A stretch of 64,000 nucleotides of DNA from a virus (Duplodnaviria > Caudoviricetes), in IMG/VR virus record IMGVR_UViG_3300029288_004207, positions 16,563-80,562 of that record; one strand, given 5' to 3'. Position numbers and translations under genes: made by a program. The notes under the pieces were generated by a model that was not told where the DNA came from, ran no database searches, and saw nothing but the letters and a program-made list of their open reading frames with translations. This document shows, in pieces, positions 959 to 25,963 of the stretch (its first letter is position 1; every line of letters starts with the position of its first letter).

Positions 959-1126
959 ATGAGAAATGATGAGTTAAAACACAAACGAGTGCAAGGTATA
1001 CCTATAATCAAACATGGTGCGCCCCAGCCTGGAATAACCAAAAAGGAGTTTATGGATGTTTTGGCTAGGGCTGTTCCACCTGTTTCACACGAACCGGAAT
1101 CTGATTCAGAAAGTTCGCAAACATAG
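959..1126 (+). CDS. 55-aa ORF convergent with and overlapping the 3' end of the IS1595 transposase
   Basis: Not in the ORF track. KKEFMDVLARAVPP...PESDSESSQT resembles the equivalent ORF 48794-48982 of the second IS1595 (EAEFESLLDKASQP...PDSKEAETS). Confidence 0.5.
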   Translation: MRNDELKHKRVQGIPIIKHGAPQPGITKKEFMDVLARAVPPVSHEPESDSESSQT

Positions 1127-1970
1127 GTGTCTCGCTCTTGCGATGATTATAGCGGAATGAATATTCGTTAACGTAGGATTGGAGATACTTAGGGGAAACA
1201 TTATGATACACACCACCGATACCACGCTTAACGAGCGACCAGAAACCCTCAATGGTGTTCGTGTGAACGATGCCACGAGAATACTCGTGTATGGAATGAT
1301 TCACTATTTGATGGTTATAACCGTTCTTGTTAAGCGGGTTGTATGCGCTCATTTCATCCGTGTAAACAGTGGTGTTAGGCTCTACGTTCTCTTTTACTTG
1401 GGGTATAATGGTTGCTTGGTCAGTATTAGGCACAACCACCGCTTTAACATCGCCCTTGCGTTCTACAGCCCCGAATACGGGCGTTTTGTCCGCCGTGCCA
1501 CGACCTGTGAGGTTGGCACGTTTGGAATCGTGCATGTTGATTGCCTTACCACCCATGTATGTCTCATCAAGTTCTACTTCACCGGAAAGCATTTTATTCT
1601 CGCCCAAGAGGGTACGAATCTGTTTGAACATACGCCATGCTGTTTTATAGGTAACTCCAAGTTCACGTTGAAGCTGTTTAGCAGATATGCCACAGCGAGT
1701 AGAGGACATGAGGTATATAGCGTAAAACCAAGAGCGCAAAGAGGTCTCGGACTTATGGAATATGCTGTTAGCCGTTGGGGATACATGGCTTCTGCAAAAC
1801 TTGCAGGTATATACTTTACGATTGGCTATTCTGTAATGTGTAGTTACCCTATCGCACTTCTGGCAGAATACGCCTTGCGGATAACGGAGTTTCAAGAGTA
1901 TATCAAGGCACTCATTATCGGTAGGAAATTGCTTGTTAAATTCTTTGATTGTAAACTTTGTAGTAGTCAT
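1065..1970 (-). mobile_element. IS1595-family (ISXO2-like DDE) transposase
   Basis: N-terminal Zn ribbon (CQKC..CKFC), VELDETYMGG, TDE, HTNTIEGFWS, YxNEYSFRYNHR. Start moved to ATG 1970 because of the AAGGAG RBS. Left IR not found. Confidence 0.92.
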
Positions 1971-1999
1971 ATTGCTCCTTTGGTTAATAAGTATGTTTA

Positions 2000-2029
2000 A
2001 TTGTAGCATTAATAAATACGTGTTGTCAA
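2000..2029 (-). promoter_or_regulatory. sigma70-type promoter of the transposase
   Basis: TTGACA-18-TACAAT on the minus strand; same position as the IR-embedded promoter of the second IS. Confidence 0.6.
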
Positions 2030-3125: not shown

Positions 3126-3515
3126 ATGCAAACTAAGAAGTCTTTAATAATAATCTGTATTGTATTATTAGTAGTAATTACTGTTATAACCTCTCTATTT
3201 ACGACTGGAACTATTAGTTTACAAGTCGGGCAGTTAGAAAACAAAATATCAGCGCATGAAGCAGTTTTAGTAAACGATATTACTAATGTAAAAGAATCAG
3301 ACTTTCCTTTCTATGTATCTATCATGTATAGTACTACGAGCCAATCTTATACGCACCAGACTATACCAATAAAAATATCTAAAAATGGGGAGTTTGCGAT
3401 AAAACTTATTGGATTAACACCAGATACTACATACTATTATTATGTTAGAGTCATAAGGTCAGATTTTATTGTATTCGGTAATGAGGAAAAAAGTTTTACT
3501 ACGGCAAAGGAATAA
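3126..3515 (+). CDS. membrane-anchored/secreted protein with a fibronectin-III-like C-terminal motif
   Basis: Signal/TM segment; LIGLTPDTTYYYYVRV matches the FnIII LxPxTxYxxxV signature. Confidence 0.6.
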   Translation: MQTKKSLIIICIVLLVVITVITSLFTTGTISLQVGQLENKISAHEAVLVNDITNVKESDFPFYVSIMYSTTSQSYTHQTIPIKISKNGEFAIKLIGLTPDTTYYYYVRVIRSDFIVFGNEEKSFTTAKE

Positions 3516-3565
3516 TTAAAAACTAACTTAATTTAAGAGTTGCAAAATAAATATTACTAATTTAC

Positions 3566-3594
3566 TTGACAAAACAGTATCTTGACTTTATAAT
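3566..3594 (+). promoter_or_regulatory. perfect-consensus sigma70 promoter upstream of the basic peptide and coat gene
   Basis: TTGACA (3566-3571)-17-TATAAT (3589-3594). Confidence 0.85.
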
Positions 3595-3643
3595 ATACAG
3601 AAATGTACTTTATCTTGAAAAGTTATCGGGGGTCTGTTAATAT

Positions 3644-3751
3644 TTGAAAGCAAGACGTTCAGCCAAACAAAAAGCGGCTACCAAGAAAATGATTGCTGCC
3701 GCAAAACGTGCAAATCTCAAAGGTGGGAAAAATAAGCACGGTAAGGGCTAA
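3644..3751 (+). CDS. 35-aa highly basic peptide, putative DNA-condensing virion protein
   Basis: GGGGGT-10nt-TTG; (M)KARRSAKQKAATKKMIAAAKRANLKGGKNKHGKG; below the ORF-track cutoff. Confidence 0.6.
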   Translation: MKARRSAKQKAATKKMIAAAKRANLKGGKNKHGKG

Positions 3752-3851
3752 ATACCCTTAAAAGCACTTTAACAATTGCATATTCCTTTTTTGTAAATCT
3801 GCTTACATTCAAGCAATATAGCAGAAATAATGGTCGGAGGTCTTTGAATGA

Positions 3852-4490
3852 ATGCAGATGATTTTGGGTTGGCAAAACAGCCCCTTCATTCAGTGATGGA
3901 TGAAGCAAACCCATCTAAACGGGGGAAACCTGAAATGGCAATCCCGTACTAAGCAGAAAGAGAACCAATCTTTCGGGCATGTGTAACGACTTTACGGTGG
4001 GTATCTGTTTACAAGATAGATAAAGAGAAAGTCTGCTCTGCAACAAATTAACATCCCTTAATCTTCAGACTAAGTTGCAGTTAACACAAAGGTTAATTTT
4101 CGCAGCCATCTTCGTATATGTGGGCGTGAACCTGGAGCCTGGTCTTAACCAGACCGTAGCTACTATCACGACTCCGACATATTCCAGTGGCGTTGCCGGA
4201 CTCAACGGGGTAATCATGATTGTCTTTGCAGCCATAAGATATAAAATTGTGGCTTTGGGGAGTAATCTCCATTGTAAAACGCATCAAATTCGGGGAAGCC
4301 TAAACTCTTTTAAGAGCATGGTAATCGCCGAGCTAAGCAGGAAAGCTAATGCTTTCTGGGCATGTGGAGAGACTAGATGGTGCGCTTCCAATTTAAATTG
4401 GAAGATGGTATAGTCCGAACCTCATCTAAAGGTGAGTTGACATAACGGATAATCTTCGGAGTTGTCAAGCAAATGTCCGCCGCCGCCTAA
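3852..4490 (+). CDS. putative major coat protein, 67 aa, spliced from exons 3852-3869, 4093-4235 and 4448-4490
   Basis: Spliced product MQMILGLIFAAIFVYVGVNLEPGLNQTVATITTPTYSSGVAGLNGVIMIVFAAMIIFGVVKQMSAAA; two hydrophobic helices; GGAGGT RBS; strong promoter upstream and terminator downstream. Splicing is well supported, the coat function is inferred. Confidence 0.75.
3870..4092 (+). ncRNA. group I intron 1 (223 nt, ORF-less)
   Basis: P1 GGGU|UG with CAGCCC (U3869.G3880); P3 ACCCAUC 3909-3915 / GGUGGGU 3996-4002; P4 ACGGG/CCCGU; P7 GACUUU 3988-3993 / AAAGUC 4028-4033; P9 CUGCAAC/GUUGCAG; terminal G4092. Confidence 0.88.
4236..4447 (+). ncRNA. group I intron 2 (212 nt, ORF-less)
   Basis: P1 AGCCAU with GUGGCU (U4235.G4249); P3 CGCAUC 4280-4285 / GGUGCG 4379-4384; P7 GACUA 4371-4375 / UAGUC 4411-4415; P8 palindrome 4385-4404; P9 CUCAUC/GGUGAG; terminal G4447; removal restores the frame. 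Confidence 0.92.
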
Positions 4491-4516
4491 CAGAATACTT
4501 TCGCCTCAATAGAATT

Positions 4517-4556
4517 GGGGAGATACTTTAGAATTATTTTTGATATCTCCCCTTTT
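4517..4556 (+). terminator. intrinsic terminator after the coat gene
   Basis: GGGGAGATA...TATCTCCCC followed by TTTT. Confidence 0.65.
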
Positions 4557-4572
4557 CTTGTGCCAAAATCTA

Positions 4573-4601
4573 TTGACAAATAGACATAAGTATGATATAT
4601 T
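4573..4601 (+). promoter_or_regulatory. sigma70-type promoter
   Basis: TTGACA-17-TATATT. Confidence 0.65.
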
Positions 4602-4620
4602 ATATATGGAGGGAAGATAA

Positions 4621-4755
4621 ATGAAAGTAATGTTGATAAGAATAGATGAGAAAGACAAACAGTTATTGGAAATAGAGGCAAAAAAACTAGGTTTACCACT
4701 TACGGCTTATTGTCGCATGATATTATTAAAGAATTTACAGAAAGAGGATAAATAA
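4621..4755 (+). CDS. ribbon-helix-helix DNA-binding protein (44 aa)
   Basis: MKVMLIRIDEKDKQLLEIEAKKLGLPLTAYCRMILL: alternating beta strand plus two helices, typical RHH pattern; not in the ORF track. Confidence 0.75.
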   Translation: MKVMLIRIDEKDKQLLEIEAKKLGLPLTAYCRMILLKNLQKEDK

Positions 4756-6605: not shown

Positions 6606-7670
6606 ATGAAAATGATACGCACAGTCAAGATAAATAGCCCGGTAAATAAGGGTAAACTTCAAGGGATACGCGAGTTTCTTGTAGAGTACCAAAACTGTGT
6701 TAATTACTTCATTGCGAGACTGTGGAGCGAACAACGTTTTCGCGGCTCATATCTGGATAAACCCTATATAGCTTCGGCGCGGAAACGATTTAATCTCACC
6801 GCCCGTTTAATCCAGTGCGCGGGGAAACAAGCGTTTGAAGTTGTTAAGTCACAGCGTAAAAAAGATACCAAACAATTTCCAAGATTCAAGACACTATCGG
6901 CTACACTGGATAGCCGTTTTTGGTCAATTACTGATAACGAAAACACCTTTAATTGGTTAAAACTACAGTCAGGTTTTACTTACTTAATCCCGTTTACCAA
7001 GTCTAAACTTTGGGATAAGTGGCTTGAAAAAGGATTTATACTCTCCAAATCTATGCGAGTTAGTATCAGAAAAGATAAACTAGAGCTAGAGTTTTTCTTT
7101 GAGCATGAATCACCGGAACTTAAACCCATTGGAAACACCGAGGGATTAGATTTAGGGTACGTTAATCTAGCAACATGTTCTGATGGGCAGATGGTCGGCA
7201 TGAGATTAAATCAGTTTATCCGTACATTCCCCAAACGCAAAAAACATACACATAAGACTATAACAAACAAGGTTTATCAAGAGCTAAAATCCCTTGATTT
7301 AAGCAAGATTAACACACTTGTTTTAGAGAACCTTAAACGAGTAAAGCATAATACACGTGAGACGTTCTCACGAACACATAACAGGCGTTTATCTCATTGG
7401 CTATATGCCAAGGTGATTAGATGGTTGGAACAACGCTGTGAGGAACAGGGAATCCGCATAGAATACAAATCTCCCTGGAAAACTTCACAGAATTGTTCAG
7501 TCTGCCACAAATGGGATAAACGAAATCGTAACGGTGAAAGGTTTAAATGTGTAAACTGTGGGCATGAGGAACATGCGGACGTAATCGGCTCACAAAACCT
7601 CAAGTCGTTAGGATTGGCGGGAGTCTATAGTCTCCGTTTATTACCAACTCTTAATGGTGGGTGTCTATGA
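6606..7670 (+). CDS. tnpB: TnpB / Cas12f-like RNA-guided endonuclease, no tnpA adjacent
   Basis: RuvC-I GLDLG, RuvC-II VLENL, Zn finger CSVC..CVNC, RuvC-III HADVIGS; own promoter TTGACA-17-TAAGGT at 6569-6597. Confidence 0.92.
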   Translation: MKMIRTVKINSPVNKGKLQGIREFLVEYQNCVNYFIARLWSEQRFRGSYLDKPYIASARKRFNLTARLIQCAGKQAFEVVKSQRKKDTKQFPRFKTLSATLDSRFWSITDNENTFNWLKLQSGFTYLIPFTKSKLWDKWLEKGFILSKSMRVSIRKDKLELEFFFEHESPELKPIGNTEGLDLGYVNLATCSDGQMVGMRLNQFIRTFPKRKKHTHKTITNKVYQELKSLDLSKINTLVLENLKRVKHNTRETFSRTHNRRLSHWLYAKVIRWLEQRCEEQGIRIEYKSPWKTSQNCSVCHKWDKRNRNGERFKCVNCGHEEHADVIGSQNLKSLGLAGVYSLRLLPTLNGGCL

Positions 7671-9107: not shown

Positions 9108-12100
9108 ATGGCCTTACCAGTTAATTTATTCGGTATTCCGATTAAACCTCCGCCTCCTACACCGCCTACACCGCCTACTACGCCTACGCCTGCACCTACT
9201 TATAGTCCAACACAGGTAGCTCAAAACATACAGCAGAAAGTACAACAAGCAGAAGCTACAGGTAAGACTTATGCGGAAGTAGCTAATGTTTCTCCTACAC
9301 CGCCTACACCGCCCACTACGCCTACGCCTGCACCTACTTATAGTCCAACACAGGTAGCTCAAAACATACAGCAGAAAGTACAACAAGCAGAAGCTACAGG
9401 TAAGACTTATGCGGAAGTAGCTAATGTTTCTCCTACACCGCCTACACCGCCTACTACGCCTACGCCTGCACCTACTTATAGTCCAACACAGGTAGCTCAA
9501 AACATACAGCAGAAAGTACAACAAGTGGAAGTAGCTAATGTTAAGGTTGTTGAACCAAGTAATATTATATATGTTTTAAAAACAACCAATCCTGATAAAT
9601 TTACAGTTCGTGTAGATAATGGGGATAATACCTACAAGCAAGTACAAATGAGCCGTCAAGAAATAATTGATGCTGGCGGGGAAATACCTGTTGTTGGCGA
9701 AGCGTGGAAAGAGATTAATAATCCGTTATCTAATAAAATGTTTTCTACCCCCAATGCTATTACAGAAACAGATATTAATAACGCTTATAAAGAACTTGGG
9801 TTAGAAATACCTGATTTTATATCAGCACCTCGCAATAAAAAGAACATGATTCTTGATGGTGATAATGCTGGTATGTTGGATGGTTTCTTTGATGAAGATG
9901 GTATAGCCTTGTATGAACATCCTGGGCAGTTTAGTAATGTAGAATCTGCTATAAAATATGAAAATACAATAAAAGACCCGATTGCTAAAGAAGCATGGGA
10001 AAATGCTTTTGTAGCTTATTGGGGTAAACTTCCTAGTGAAATAGTGTATACATTACCAAATGATAAGGAAAAAGCTATATCAGCTTTGGGTTATAAAAGT
10101 GTAGATGACCCTGAATTAGTTGCGTTATTAGAACGTTATAAGAGCAATCCAGAAGCCGAAGAATTTAAAACAGAAGCTAACGGTGGTACAATGTCTATTG
10201 CTAAAAAAACATTGTTATCATTCTTGGCTGATGTTCCTTACGATGCCGTCAAAGATTACCAGAGTAGTATTATTAGAGTTGGAACAGATATAACTTCAGG
10301 GACATTCTCACAAATGGTAGCCAGTGAATATGCCCGTAAGCATAATATGTCATTTGCTGATGTTTCTCAAATGATTCGTGATGCGGTTAATGGTAAAGAA
10401 AACGCTAACGTAAATAAATTGAGTGCTTCGGAAAAAGAAGCATTTAATAATTTAGTTACTCGTTGGAGTGCAGGTGCAGATTATATTACAAAGACTGAAG
10501 CAGATAATATAAAAGAATTAGACCCTGAAGGGTATGATTTATTACTCAAAAAAGGTTTAGATGCTTATCAATTAAGACAAGAAACGATTGCTAGTAGTTT
10601 TGAACCTTATGTACTCGCAACAGGCGCAGATGGTTCAAAACAATATGGTTTGATGAAGATGGTAGATGCTTATAACAAGAATGAGTTATCAAAAAAACAG
10701 ATTGAGTTAATTTTAGGTAAAGATGCATTAGATAAAATATTAAAGATATCCGATGAAGTTAATAGCATTAAAAAAGATTTTGAATCACAAATAGTGGATA
10801 CTCTGCCCCCAAATTTACAGGAGGATTATAGGAAAGGATTATCTAAGAATAATTTAGATGAGTTCCAAGAGAATTATCTTAGTTATATAACCAGCCAACA
10901 AGAAAGATACCAGAAATATCAAGATGCTGTTGATACTTTAACCGAATTAGGTTATAAGAAAATAATACCATCTTATAGTCCAACACAGGTAGCTCAAAAC
11001 ATACAGCAGAAAGTACAACAAGCAGAAGCTACAGGTAAGACTTATGCGGAAGTAGCTAATGTTTCTCCTACACCGCCTACACCGCATAATTTAGGTAATG
11101 CGCCTATATCAACTCAAGAACAAGCAACTCAATTTGTTGAAGGCGGTGTCGTTTACTATGATATCCCCTCTTATCTAAGAGATACCAAGACTAAAGATTA
11201 TAAAGTTAATCCTGTATCTGTATTGGTTTTAGAAAATCTTTTTGGCGGGGATAAAGAAGCGGCAAAACCAATCATAGATTCAGCACAAAAGCAACTTGAT
11301 TATTTATCAACTACTATAAACCATCTGCAAAATGATAAGTTAGATAATGCGCAAGTTGAAGCTCTAAGAAAAGCATTAATAGGAGTTGTAGGGCAACCTT
11401 TTAATGCAGATGAAGCATGGTTCTTAAATGCAGATGATTTAATGAAATTAAGGGCAGAAGCACCGGAATTACAAAGAGAATTAGATGATGCATTGGTTAA
11501 AACAAATGCAGAGCAATCATTAAAAGAGTTTTTAGGTAAATTATCGCAGGGTGATTTAGAAAAAGTTGCCGATATTTGGAGTTATGATGTAGAAAGATAT
11601 AGCCCGTTTGCTCAAACAGTAACGGCTTATAATGAAGCAATAAATAAAACACCATTAGCTAAATGGGCAAAAATGCCAGTATACTTTACTCCAGTTGGTA
11701 TGGGATTAGCTGCTACGGAATCTGTTGCCGGATTAGTTTCTCCATATACAATTTCTGATGAAGCTATAGTAAGACAAATTGATGATAACTATACTTATCT
11801 TAATTCAACGGATAAATTAGATGCTGAAGTAAATGATATTTTAGCAAAAGCGTTAAAAGATAACGATATTAAAGTTGATGAAGAAAATGCTTTACAAACC
11901 TACAAAAGCCTTGATGATTCTCAAAAAACAAAGGTTATAAAAGAATATACTCGTAATATGTTGGGATTAGACCCATCTGTTATGGATAAAATAATGACAG
12001 GTGCTATGGTTATAGCAGCAGCCATTGGTTTTAAAGGTCAAGTTTTAAACCCAATAGTTAGTAATATAATAAGTAAATACGGAATAAAAGCACCGGAATT

Positions 12101-25057: not shown

Positions 25058-25963
25058 ATGGTTGCACTTAAAAACCCTGAAGCACCAGCAAGTAAAAAGC
25101 AACTGCATAAATTGGGGGAGTTGCTTAATGTAGATACAAGCAATTTTAAATTAACAATGCAACAATCATGGGATTTGATTGAATCTTTAAGTTCTGCTTT
25201 GGGAGATAATACAGAATCTATTGAAGATTTAGAATCATTAGATAATGATAACGCTTTTAGCGAAGCACATGTTCAAATTGTAGAGGGAGACCAGCGTGGC
25301 GGTAAATCTGTCTATGCTGTTAAAACGATTAAAGAAGATTGGTTAAAAGATGCCGTAAGGATATTCTGCGAAAAAGAACTAGGCATGAAATGTGAAGTTA
25401 TAATGTATTTTAGAAAAACTAGGTCAGCAAAAATAAAGATAACGTCATTTATTGAAACAAATACAGCACAATCAGATTTACAATATATAGGTAAAACTAT
25501 TTATATCAAAATACCAGAAGATTATAAATTACATTCCCCCAAAAGGATATTCAGTAATATTTATATACTTGGTATCCCATTTTATTATATATCTTCATTC
25601 AGGGAAGCACTTAGGTTACTTAAAAAAGGTTTTATTAGAAATGGATGGTTGCTGTTGGATGAGGCGCATCGTGGCATGAGCGCAAGAAATGGTATGTCAA
25701 AAATGGGTAAAGAATTTGTAGGGGAAATATATCAGTTTGGTAAATCGTTATTAGATGTTATTATAATTACACATCATGCTATAATGATAGAATCATTAGC
25801 TAGACTTATTCCTACAAAAAGAGTATATTGTTCTTATAATAAGAGAACAAAGAAAGTAAGTTGCCAAATCAGGGAAAAAGGTATTGAGGGAACTTTAGTA
25901 AAAGAATTTTATGCACCTGATTGGTGGGATAGTTATTATACTAACCAAAAGATAAGAGCGTAG
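25058..25963 (+). CDS. Zot/pI-like morphogenesis (extrusion/packaging) ATPase
   Basis: Walker A GDQRGGKS, Walker B LLLDEAH..SAR, then GKSLLDVIIITHHAIMIESLAR, matching the RHxxxDIIxxTQxxxxIDxxxR pattern; no TM seen. Confidence 0.75.
   Translation: MVALKNPEAPASKKQLHKLGELLNVDTSNFKLTMQQSWDLIESLSSALGDNTESIEDLESLDNDNAFSEAHVQIVEGDQRGGKSVYAVKTIKEDWLKDAVRIFCEKELGMKCEVIMYFRKTRSAKIKITSFIETNTAQSDLQYIGKTIYIKIPEDYKLHSPKRIFSNIYILGIPFYYISSFREALRLLKKGFIRNGWLLLDEAHRGMSARNGMSKMGKEFVGEIYQFGKSLLDVIIITHHAIMIESLARLIPTKRVYCSYNKRTKKVSCQIREKGIEGTLVKEFYAPDWWDSYYTNQKIRA

Follow-up and report, generated by a model that had tools for sequence, protein, structure and literature searches.

How is a protein of 67 amino acids (aa) made from a gene that cannot be read through from start to stop? 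This question is raised by positions 3566 to 4559 of a 64-kb stretch of DNA (64,000 nucleotides (nt), hereafter the window) that is part of the IMG/VR virus record IMGVR_UViG_3300029288_004207, the whole contig of which is 80.5 kb. The locus is read as a single transcription unit. The answer proposed in this work is that a gene for a small hydrophobic hairpin protein, a probable capsid subunit, is split here by two group I introns, and that the same gene is a hot spot for such introns among its relatives. The probability given to this reading as a whole is about 0.8, and its parts are of unequal strength. Related metagenomic loci are denoted by L numbers (the related contigs are 58-102 kb long) and related public proteins by P numbers, where P0001 is the peptide of exon 2.

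The split gene and its two introns

The three exons (Table 1) can be joined into a 204-nt gene with an open frame of 67 aa. About 60 proteins of 43-82 aa were identified when P0001 was used as the query, with E values down to 2.5e-19. The uninterrupted alleles in the relatives are 65-67 aa long. The predicted spliced product is identical at 66 of 67 residues to P0003, a 67-aa intron-less protein found on contigs of 58-83 kb, and the sole change is T for Q in the loop. About 60 other proteins, of 59-68 aa, also match this predicted product. The search for intron-less alleles also gave the exact DNA junction for intron 2. In blastn, window positions 4096-4235 match positions 10022-10161 of the intron-less locus L001 and window positions 4448-4496 match its positions 10162-10211. 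These flanking exon matches adjoin in L001, hence intron 2 is exactly 4236-4447. Intron 1 was placed between codons 6 and 7 by protein colinearity with the intron-less alleles, and the terminal guanosines of both introns (G4092 and G4447) are fixed by the same colinearity. Exon 2 is 71% identical to L001 in DNA and 98% identical in protein, which indicates purifying selection on the spliced reading frame.

These comparisons bear directly on the possibility that nothing is spliced and that the genuine products come from the 112-aa open reading frame (ORF) 4075-4413 or from further frames without splicing. ORF 4075-4413 is indeed open, and public gene callers yield similar read-through proteins of 95-138 aa. 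However, the similarity of every relative stops at the exon boundaries, and so the 112-aa ORF is not conserved. The read-through tails of the relatives vary between contigs and match intron RNA, whereas the uninterrupted alleles have the length of the spliced product. It is therefore the spliced 67-aa protein that the homologs conserve, and the chance that the unspliced frames are the products is negligible.

Both introns were matched by the Rfam model Intron_gpI (RF00028), the check that the first-pass annotation of this DNA had proposed. A scan of positions 3400-4700 gave 4226-4437 (71.7 bits, E 6.5e-18) and 3850-4054 (45.4 bits, E 5e-10), both on the + strand. The search of the whole 80.5-kb record gave the same two Intron_gpI matches and no others. 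Scans of the whole 64-kb window under both gathering and E-value thresholds found neither intron. That blank is a filter artefact because the 1.3-kb scan gives 71.7 and 45.4 bits; speed filters hide these introns in routine scans, and a blank whole-window Intron_gpI scan is no evidence of absence. The reading of the introns as tRNA introns was dropped because the window has no tRNA genes.

A covariance model of the family (R1) was built from eight aligned family introns and was searched against the window and 34 loci (165 kb, both strands). The 46 matches all lie on the strand of the gene and all lie in or beside the hairpin gene; only two are in the window. Introns outside the training set of R1 score up to 158 bits. 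Intron 2 scores 214 bits and intron 1, which is outside the training set, scores 88.7 bits. At the sites shared with relatives, intron 1 is 75% identical to the intron of L024, and intron 2 is 77-83% identical to those of L017, L044, and L051.

The structural elements expected of group I introns were found in both. The P1 helix of intron 1 is formed by 3866-3871/3878-3883 with U3869.G3880 at the 5' splice site, and its P7 by GACUU (3988-3992) and AAGUC (4029-4033). The P1 helix of intron 2 is formed by 4230-4237/4247-4254 with U4235.G4249 at the 5' splice site, and its P7 by GACUA (4371-4375) and UAGUC (4411-4415). The U.G rule at the splice site in P1 also holds in 15 related introns, where the guide sequences vary by site. 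RNAalifold on eight family introns gave 36 consensus pairs, 25 of which have compensatory double changes (in P2, P3, P4, P5, P6, and P8); P7 is a pseudoknot and lies outside this covariation score. So high a proportion of compensatory pairs argues strongly for selection on the ribozyme fold.

Two points weigh against the introns as described. The Rfam score of intron 1 (45.4 bits) is below the RF00028 gathering score of 50 bits. The P1 helices are short (5-8 bp), and helices of at least 6 bp are found at 27% of random T positions in the same search; P1 alone thus proves little and is necessary but not sufficient. With the exact junctions, the covariation, and the family model set beside these points, we regard it as close to certain that the two are real group I introns with exactly these exons. 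The promoter, ribosome-binding site, three exons, two introns, and terminator that the first-pass annotation had described were each confirmed at their positions, as were the U.G pair, P7, and terminal G of both introns and the 67-aa frame of the joined exons.

Both introns are also very likely still able to splice, to judge from their sequences. The competing explanation is that both are decayed relics, that the gene is dead here, and that a paralog such as a fused copy upstream supplies the function. The sub-threshold Rfam score of intron 1, the lack of an endonuclease ORF in either intron, and a second hairpin-domain gene at G000:C1:15228-15434 would fit such a decay. Yet both introns retain the U.G pair, terminal G, P7, and conserved junction motifs, and the family model gives them 214 and 89 bits. 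The excised exons are intact and in frame, encoding a protein one residue off P0003 despite 29% DNA divergence, and the same arrangement is kept on many independent contigs. The relic explanation is thus very improbable.

For introns that still splice, the proposed mechanism is as follows. The internal guide sequence of each intron would pair with the last bases of the upstream exon, where the U.G pair closes P1. Two guanosine-dependent transesterifications would then excise each intron and join the exons of 18, 143, and 43 nt. Since the gene is broken by the two ORF-less group I ribozymes, translation of the unspliced transcript cannot yield the 67-aa product. The intron lengths total 435 nt against 204 nt of coding sequence, and the longest stop-free stretches in introns 1 and 2 (49 and 58 codons) run in from the exons.

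The 5' exon target of the intron 2 guide, GCAGCCAT, is present twice in exon 2 (4102-4109 and 4228-4235). The two copies are 126 nt apart and in frame, as F-A-A-I and F-A-A-M codons.

The flanking signals of the transcription unit are listed in Table 1. The leader 3' of the promoter-like site (~3625-3643) is similar to the leader of the intron-less allele L001. A copy of the ribosome-binding block TCGGGGGTCT stands before the 35-codon ORF that lies between the promoter-like site and the hairpin gene, and in L001 the same block precedes the main gene. This ORF resembles an inserted cassette because it stands behind a duplicated ribosome-binding block. Its homolog was identified in one related locus (L034), and we can only guess that its very basic peptide is a DNA-binding virion protein like SSV1 VP2. 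The terminator-like hairpin has a folding energy of -23 kcal/mol (z = -4.7; 0 of 200 shuffles fold as well) and was missed by a simple terminator scan because its loop is 18 nt. A similar hairpin lies 3' of the gene in L001. The G+C content climbs from ~0.30 to 0.42-0.49 across 3800-4500, as expected of structured RNA.

Table 1. Features at and near the split hairpin gene, with window coordinates, followed by the intron sites identified in the window and related loci, with sites given by codon of the hairpin gene.
Feature	Position	Strand	Remarks
IS1595-family transposase copy	1065-2009	-	G+C 0.44-0.49 against 0.30 for the element
Sigma-70-type promoter-like site, TTGACA-17 nt-TATAAT	3566-3594	+	12/12 consensus matches
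35-codon ORF, very basic peptide	3644-3751	+	between promoter-like site and hairpin gene
GGAGG ribosome-binding site	3836-3840	+	11 nt before ATG at 3852; read from sequence
Exon 1, 18 nt, codons 1-6	3852-3869	+	first six residues same as in intron-less P0003 and L001
Group I intron 1, 223 nt, no ORF	3870-4092	+	after codon 6, phase 0; Rfam RF00028 and family model R1
Exon 2, 143 nt: helix 1, conserved loop, most of helix 2	4093-4235	+	from codon 7 to site 53.67
Group I intron 2, 212 nt, no ORF	4236-4447	+	inside codon 54 (AT/G), phase 2; Rfam RF00028
Exon 3, 43 nt including TAA	4448-4490	+	third base of codon 54, codons 55-67; 84% identical to L001 10162-10211
Intrinsic-terminator-like hairpin	4517-4559	+	9-bp G+C-rich stem, 18-nt loop, then UUUUCUU
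Free-standing NUMOD3-motif endonuclease-like gene, 285 aa	5051-5908	+	Pfam NUMOD3 E 5.7e-20; 560 nt 3' of hairpin gene
TnpB-type RNA-guided nuclease gene	6606-7670	+	inserted near split gene
Giant ORF, 3275 aa	9108-18935		intein (~residues 2760-3104), NUDIX and HAD phosphatase domains
Intron site	codon 6.0		window, L024, L033, L044, L045, L020
Intron site	codon 6.33		L019, L031, L032
Intron site	codon 13.67		L007
Intron site	codon 22.0		L064, L065
Intron site	codon 23.33		L052; L055 and L047 also, read by eye
Intron site	codon 30.67		L046, L047, L055, L049
Intron site	codon 45.67		L022, L055
Intron site	codon 46.67		L053
Intron site	codon 53.67		window, L044, L051, L064
Intron site	codon 58.67		L016, L033

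Intron sites across related loci

A scan of metagenomes gave 57 related loci. In the tblastn map, roughly half of these loci have an uninterrupted hairpin gene, and in the others it is broken at differing codons. The interrupted alleles were reconstructed with splice sites chosen to leave a U at the exon end and a G at the intron end, and full-length frames of 65-67 aa resulted for the sites listed in Table 1; extra sites near codons 18-20, 55-57, and 62 are provisional. Reconstruction failed or was ambiguous for L017 (which has no in-frame T...G solution), L020, L024, L051, L052, L054, and L060. The Rfam group I model matches with at least 47 bits at sites 30.67, 45.67, 53.67, and 58.67 and with 41-45 bits at site 6. 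The match at site 23.33 is weak (25.4 bits).

Several alleles carry more than one intron. The highest number per allele is four (L060). L055 has three introns and, by our own reading, a 22-nt micro-exon. L059 (2105-2506) and L063 (2092-2500) each have two group I introns almost back to back, and we infer for both an 8-nt micro-exon, TTATCCCT, which was chosen as the sole solution common to the two loci that restores the family motif. Many relatives have two tandem paralogs of the hairpin gene that are 76-96% identical (L004, L010, L025, L027, L028, L041, and others), and in L017 and L024 the introns are in the second copy only. At positions 419-1009 of L054, a segment of exon (codons 7-24) is duplicated in tandem together with the intron that follows it, which is either a real duplication from intron movement or an assembly artefact.

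The introns at differing sites are related to each other, with 69-84% identity over 67-131 nt. In the window, intron 1 is similar to the site-46 and site-59 introns, and intron 2 to the intron at site 31. Their guide sequences track their targets. Guides GCCC(C) pair with GGGU at sites 6 and 45.67, and the exon end at site 23.33 is also GGGU. At sites 53.67 and 46.67 the exon ends CCAU or UCAU are paired by guides GUGGCU or GUGAC, and at site 58.67 GGCGU is paired by guide GCGCC. Such matching is what one intron family spreading to similar short targets would be expected to show. The hairpin gene is a population-wide hot spot for one family of related introns, with at least ten positions that share target ends of 3-4 nt. 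Spread by retargeting of the guide sequence or by reverse splicing would fit these shared target ends.

Endonucleases may take part in this spread. The product of the NUMOD3-motif gene 3' of the hairpin gene in the window has a weak match to TIGR01453 (group I intron endonuclease). Its NUMOD3 DNA-binding motifs are clear, and no nuclease family was assigned to it. By our own reading, its C-terminal motif P-D ... I-E-H-x-G looks PD-(D/E)xK- or Vsr-type. Homologs of this gene adjoin the hairpin gene in 17 related loci (introns are present in 12 of these), and the intron-less L001 is without it. It is plausible that the gene encodes a free-standing homing endonuclease that carries the ORF-less introns along. 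An endonuclease ORF was also found inside an intron. The site-30.67 intron of L049 is 691 nt long and contains a 205-aa ORF with a LAGIVDGEG motif and a weak match to Pfam LAGLIDADG_1 (E 0.0015); an ORF related to it is present in L060. Such intron-encoded LAGLIDADG and neighbouring NUMOD3 endonucleases probably aid the spread of the introns.

The hairpin protein, its element and the host

Two hydrophobic helices with a highly conserved loop between them make up the 67-aa protein. AlphaFold2 (20 homologs) predicted a helical hairpin of two helices (2-32 and 37-66) with a mean predicted local distance difference test (pLDDT) of 71. Pfam and NCBIfam gave no match to the 67-aa protein itself. The libraries searched with the predicted structure and with profiles of the family pointed to one class of proteins. 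Foldseek against the PDB put the capsid protein VP1 of SSV19 first (7XDI chain A; E 1.6, TM-score 0.50), and the same chain is the only natural protein matched in the PDB by the sequence profile (E 5.4). Profile matches to the designed SAKe Kelch-repeat proteins (E ~1e-10) were rejected because their scores are built up from six identical repeats that each match the loop motif with 8 bits.

The profile of 26 family sequences (A2) was compared by hhalign, which gave P 1e-4 and a probability of ~58% for both SSV1 VP3 and His1 VP21. Against the full set of 88 SSV1 and His1 ORFs that are 45 aa or longer, A2 placed VP3, VP21, and VP1 at ranks 1, 2, and 3 (P 1e-4, 1e-4, and 0.006), and in this control the capsid proteins outrank the other multi-transmembrane proteins of the two viruses. 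The fusellovirus structural families of PHROG were matched by 14 of 26 members (phrog_5402, best E 9.6e-4) and 10 of 26 members (phrog_11172). Pfam His1_capsid (PF25665) was matched by 6 of 26 members (best E 6.6e-4), none of them of the window's own type, and a look-alike ESM Atlas cluster carries His1_capsid. The strong promoter-like site, the ribosome-binding site, and the terminator around the gene were also counted for a capsid role. A Zot/pI-like ATPase is encoded 3' of the hairpin gene (25058-25963, E 1.2e-5).

Some observations weigh against this role. The matches to capsid families are all under curated or conventional thresholds, whether by hhalign (~58%), Pfam (6.6e-4), or Foldseek (1.6). 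The helical hairpin is a simple fold, and hydrophobic composition may inflate the scores. The holin family phrog_4712 is touched by 3 of 26 members, and JGI pipelines label some members as the Na+/H+ antiporter MnhF subunit, so that such hairpins are unspecific. The introns and exons could accordingly be as described while the protein is another small membrane protein of holin-like lysis, pilin-like or secretion, or budding and membrane-remodelling type. Holins, however, diverge fast, whereas the loop of the hairpin family is nearly invariant. Proteins of these other types would also have to be reconciled with the first three ranks of the 88-ORF control, with the very strong expression signals on both sides of the gene, and with the tandem paralogs in the relatives, which are like VP1/VP3. 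We consider a role outside the capsid unlikely.

The separate capsid signals are weak yet agreeing, and so the protein is read as a distant member of the hairpin capsid-protein class. As far as sequence can tell, its most likely relatives are the hairpin capsid proteins of spindle-shaped archaeal viruses, to which it would be distantly homologous. It is predicted, with fair confidence, to be the major virion (capsid) subunit of a large non-tailed double-stranded DNA virus. The coat protein of the first-pass annotation is therefore moderately supported: the ranks of the known capsid proteins and the weak His1_capsid, PHROG, and 7XDI matches stand for it, and none of these matches reaches its threshold. 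Its further claim that the gene is invisible to gene callers held in part only, as the public sets hold many calls of the gene that are truncated or read through. That the virus group as a whole is systematically missed is a looser suggestion, as this contig is itself in IMG/VR, although the profile search there gave no relative, and control of virion production by splicing would be speculation.

Other forms of the hairpin domain were observed. The hairpin-domain gene upstream of the window is intron-less, and its hairpin domain (E 7.9e-8 with the family profile) is fused into a longer open frame of 237 aa. The public proteins include further fusions, of 117-236 aa (P0074, P0090, P0099, and P0105). 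The tandem paralogs in the relatives together with the fused upstream paralog may recall the VP1/VP3 pair.

The completeness of the 80.5-kb record was estimated by CheckV as 51%, and no terminal repeats were found on the contig. Relatives of 58-102 kb share the order of hairpin gene, small basic ORFs, and giant ORF, and they carry versions of the giant ORF of 2803 aa and 1564 aa at the same position. No capsid, portal, or terminase family was found by PHROG and Pfam among the ~30 ORFs scanned, which are a part of the genome. A crAss-like phage was first suggested by the giant intein ORF and low G+C content, and was dropped as the PHROG and Pfam scans gave no tailed-phage genes. Many glycosylation genes are present in the window. 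The blastn search of positions 3500-4620 against 50,697 phage records gave no match, and the profile of the hairpin protein identified no relative among 2.9 million IMG/VR contigs. The scan of a genome collection with this profile identified only two contigs of metagenome-assembled genomes (MAGs).

Two family members are on contigs that were binned to MAGs of Dehalococcoidales or Chloroflexota. For the insertion sequence (IS) transposase of the IS1595 family, all named relatives are from Chloroflexota or Dehalococcoidia, and one relative, which is 77% identical, is on a cellular contig beside uvrA, ffh, and leuS. We consider the host probably bacterial and possibly Chloroflexota. What weighs against this call is its basis, which is the IS element, the MAG binning, and expression signals of consensus type.

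An archaeal host would be in line with all known viruses that have this capsid type, and in that case the seemingly bacterial signals would be AT-rich imitations. Members of the capsid family are so far known from archaeal viruses, and the window carries DUF2206, a TFIIS-type zinc ribbon, and enzymes of N-glycosylation type; TTTATAAT could equally be an archaeal TATA box. Against these stand the perfect -35/-10 pair here and the extended -10 in L001, the terminators of G+C-rich hairpin and U-run 3' of the gene, and the IS1595 relatives and MAG contigs described above. To our knowledge, group I introns are essentially unreported in archaea, and their scarcity there also speaks for a bacterial host. 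So does FtsH, which is encoded in relatives, and so do the Dehalococcoides elements that have a pI-like ATPase and VP1-like proteins (bioRxiv 10.64898/2026.09.15.751708). An archaeal host is thus somewhat unlikely. The FtsH-like protease of L001 (6399-8333; AAA and Peptidase_M41 domains) is unusual in a virus and typically bacterial.

Comparison with known systems

Self-splicing group I introns in the protein genes of phages are known from Staphylococcus phage Twort, where orf142 has three, and from td, nrdB, and nrdD of T4. These systems resemble the present one in having several introns in a gene or genome, some with homing endonuclease ORFs and some without. They differ from the window gene in the class of host gene and in the type of virus. 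No reported case is known to us in which exons are as short as 8-22 nt or in which so short a gene has this many alternative insertion sites. Among protein-coding genes described in prokaryotic viruses, the hairpin gene may be the most saturated with introns, a tentative claim that we hold at slightly less than even odds. It would have ribozymes of ~190-220 nt at ten or more (perhaps 13) positions, up to four per allele, with inferred micro-exons of 8-22 nt and retargeting between GGGU, CAU, and CGU ends, in the coat gene of a bacterial, probably Chloroflexota, lineage with a capsid type known only from spindle-shaped archaeal viruses.

The group I intron of cyanophage psbA and the adjacent free-standing endonuclease F-CphI are an example of collaborative homing. 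An ORF-less group I intron and a free-standing endonuclease gene that adjoins the interrupted gene are common to both systems. The gene in the window differs from F-CphI in that it is a NUMOD3-motif endonuclease-like gene which is linked to the introns by recurrent neighbourhood alone. A short conserved gene with about a dozen alternative sites and matching guides is a natural experiment on how group I introns choose their sites, and on whether reverse splicing or endonuclease-driven homing decides that choice. Micro-exons of 8-22 nt between two ribozymes probe the minimum exon length that can still form P1 and P10.

Crass-like phages of the Delta and Zeta groups have group I introns in their major capsid protein genes (Yutin et al. 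2021, PMC7886860). Several group I introns per capsid gene, dense mobile elements, and hard annotation are shared with those genes (PMC7886860). However, the crAss-like genes are large genes of tailed phages where the introns were recognised via endonuclease ORFs, whereas a 204-nt hairpin gene of a non-tailed virus is interrupted here. The window gene has two ORF-less introns of twice the coding length, and at least ten sites are used across the population. As the gene is split and the standard Rfam scan misses both introns, catalogues built on hallmark genes may under-call such viruses. The probable central structural gene of a whole uncultured virus group is in this way hidden from ORF-based annotation, at least in part.

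The IME1 elements of Dehalococcoides are 21-28 kb long and have been proposed to be filamentous (Nesbo et al., bioRxiv 10.64898/2026.09.15.751708). They are likened to the window element by description: IME1 elements are non-tailed and Chloroflexota-associated, and they have a Zot/pI-like ATPase and small transmembrane proteins that best match SSV1 VP1 and phrog_11172. The IME1 text makes no mention of introns.

The closest likeness of the protein itself is to SSV1 VP1/VP3 (Fuselloviridae) and His1 VP21 (Halspiviridae, PF25665), which are the best matches of the hairpin family in every library tried, all of them sub-threshold. These proteins are likewise hairpins of ~70-90 aa with two hydrophobic helices. 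They share the helix-1 end G-x-x-L-x-P-x-N and, with distant family members, the helix-2 start L-P-L-F. The hairpin family differs from them in its own invariant loop T-I-T-T-P-T-Y, in a genome of at least 80 kb against 14-17 kb, and in bacterial-looking expression signals. If the host is bacterial, the hairpin capsid of spindle viruses is not confined to archaea. None of those spindle-virus capsid genes is known to have introns, and the literature search identified no paper in which spindle-type capsid proteins and group I introns are treated together. Phage structural genes with group I introns, and several of them in one crAss-like capsid gene, are already known. The new points here are the kind of gene interrupted (67 codons, for the hairpin protein of a virus without a tail), the ratio of intron to exon (435:204 nt), the number of sites, and the tiny exons.

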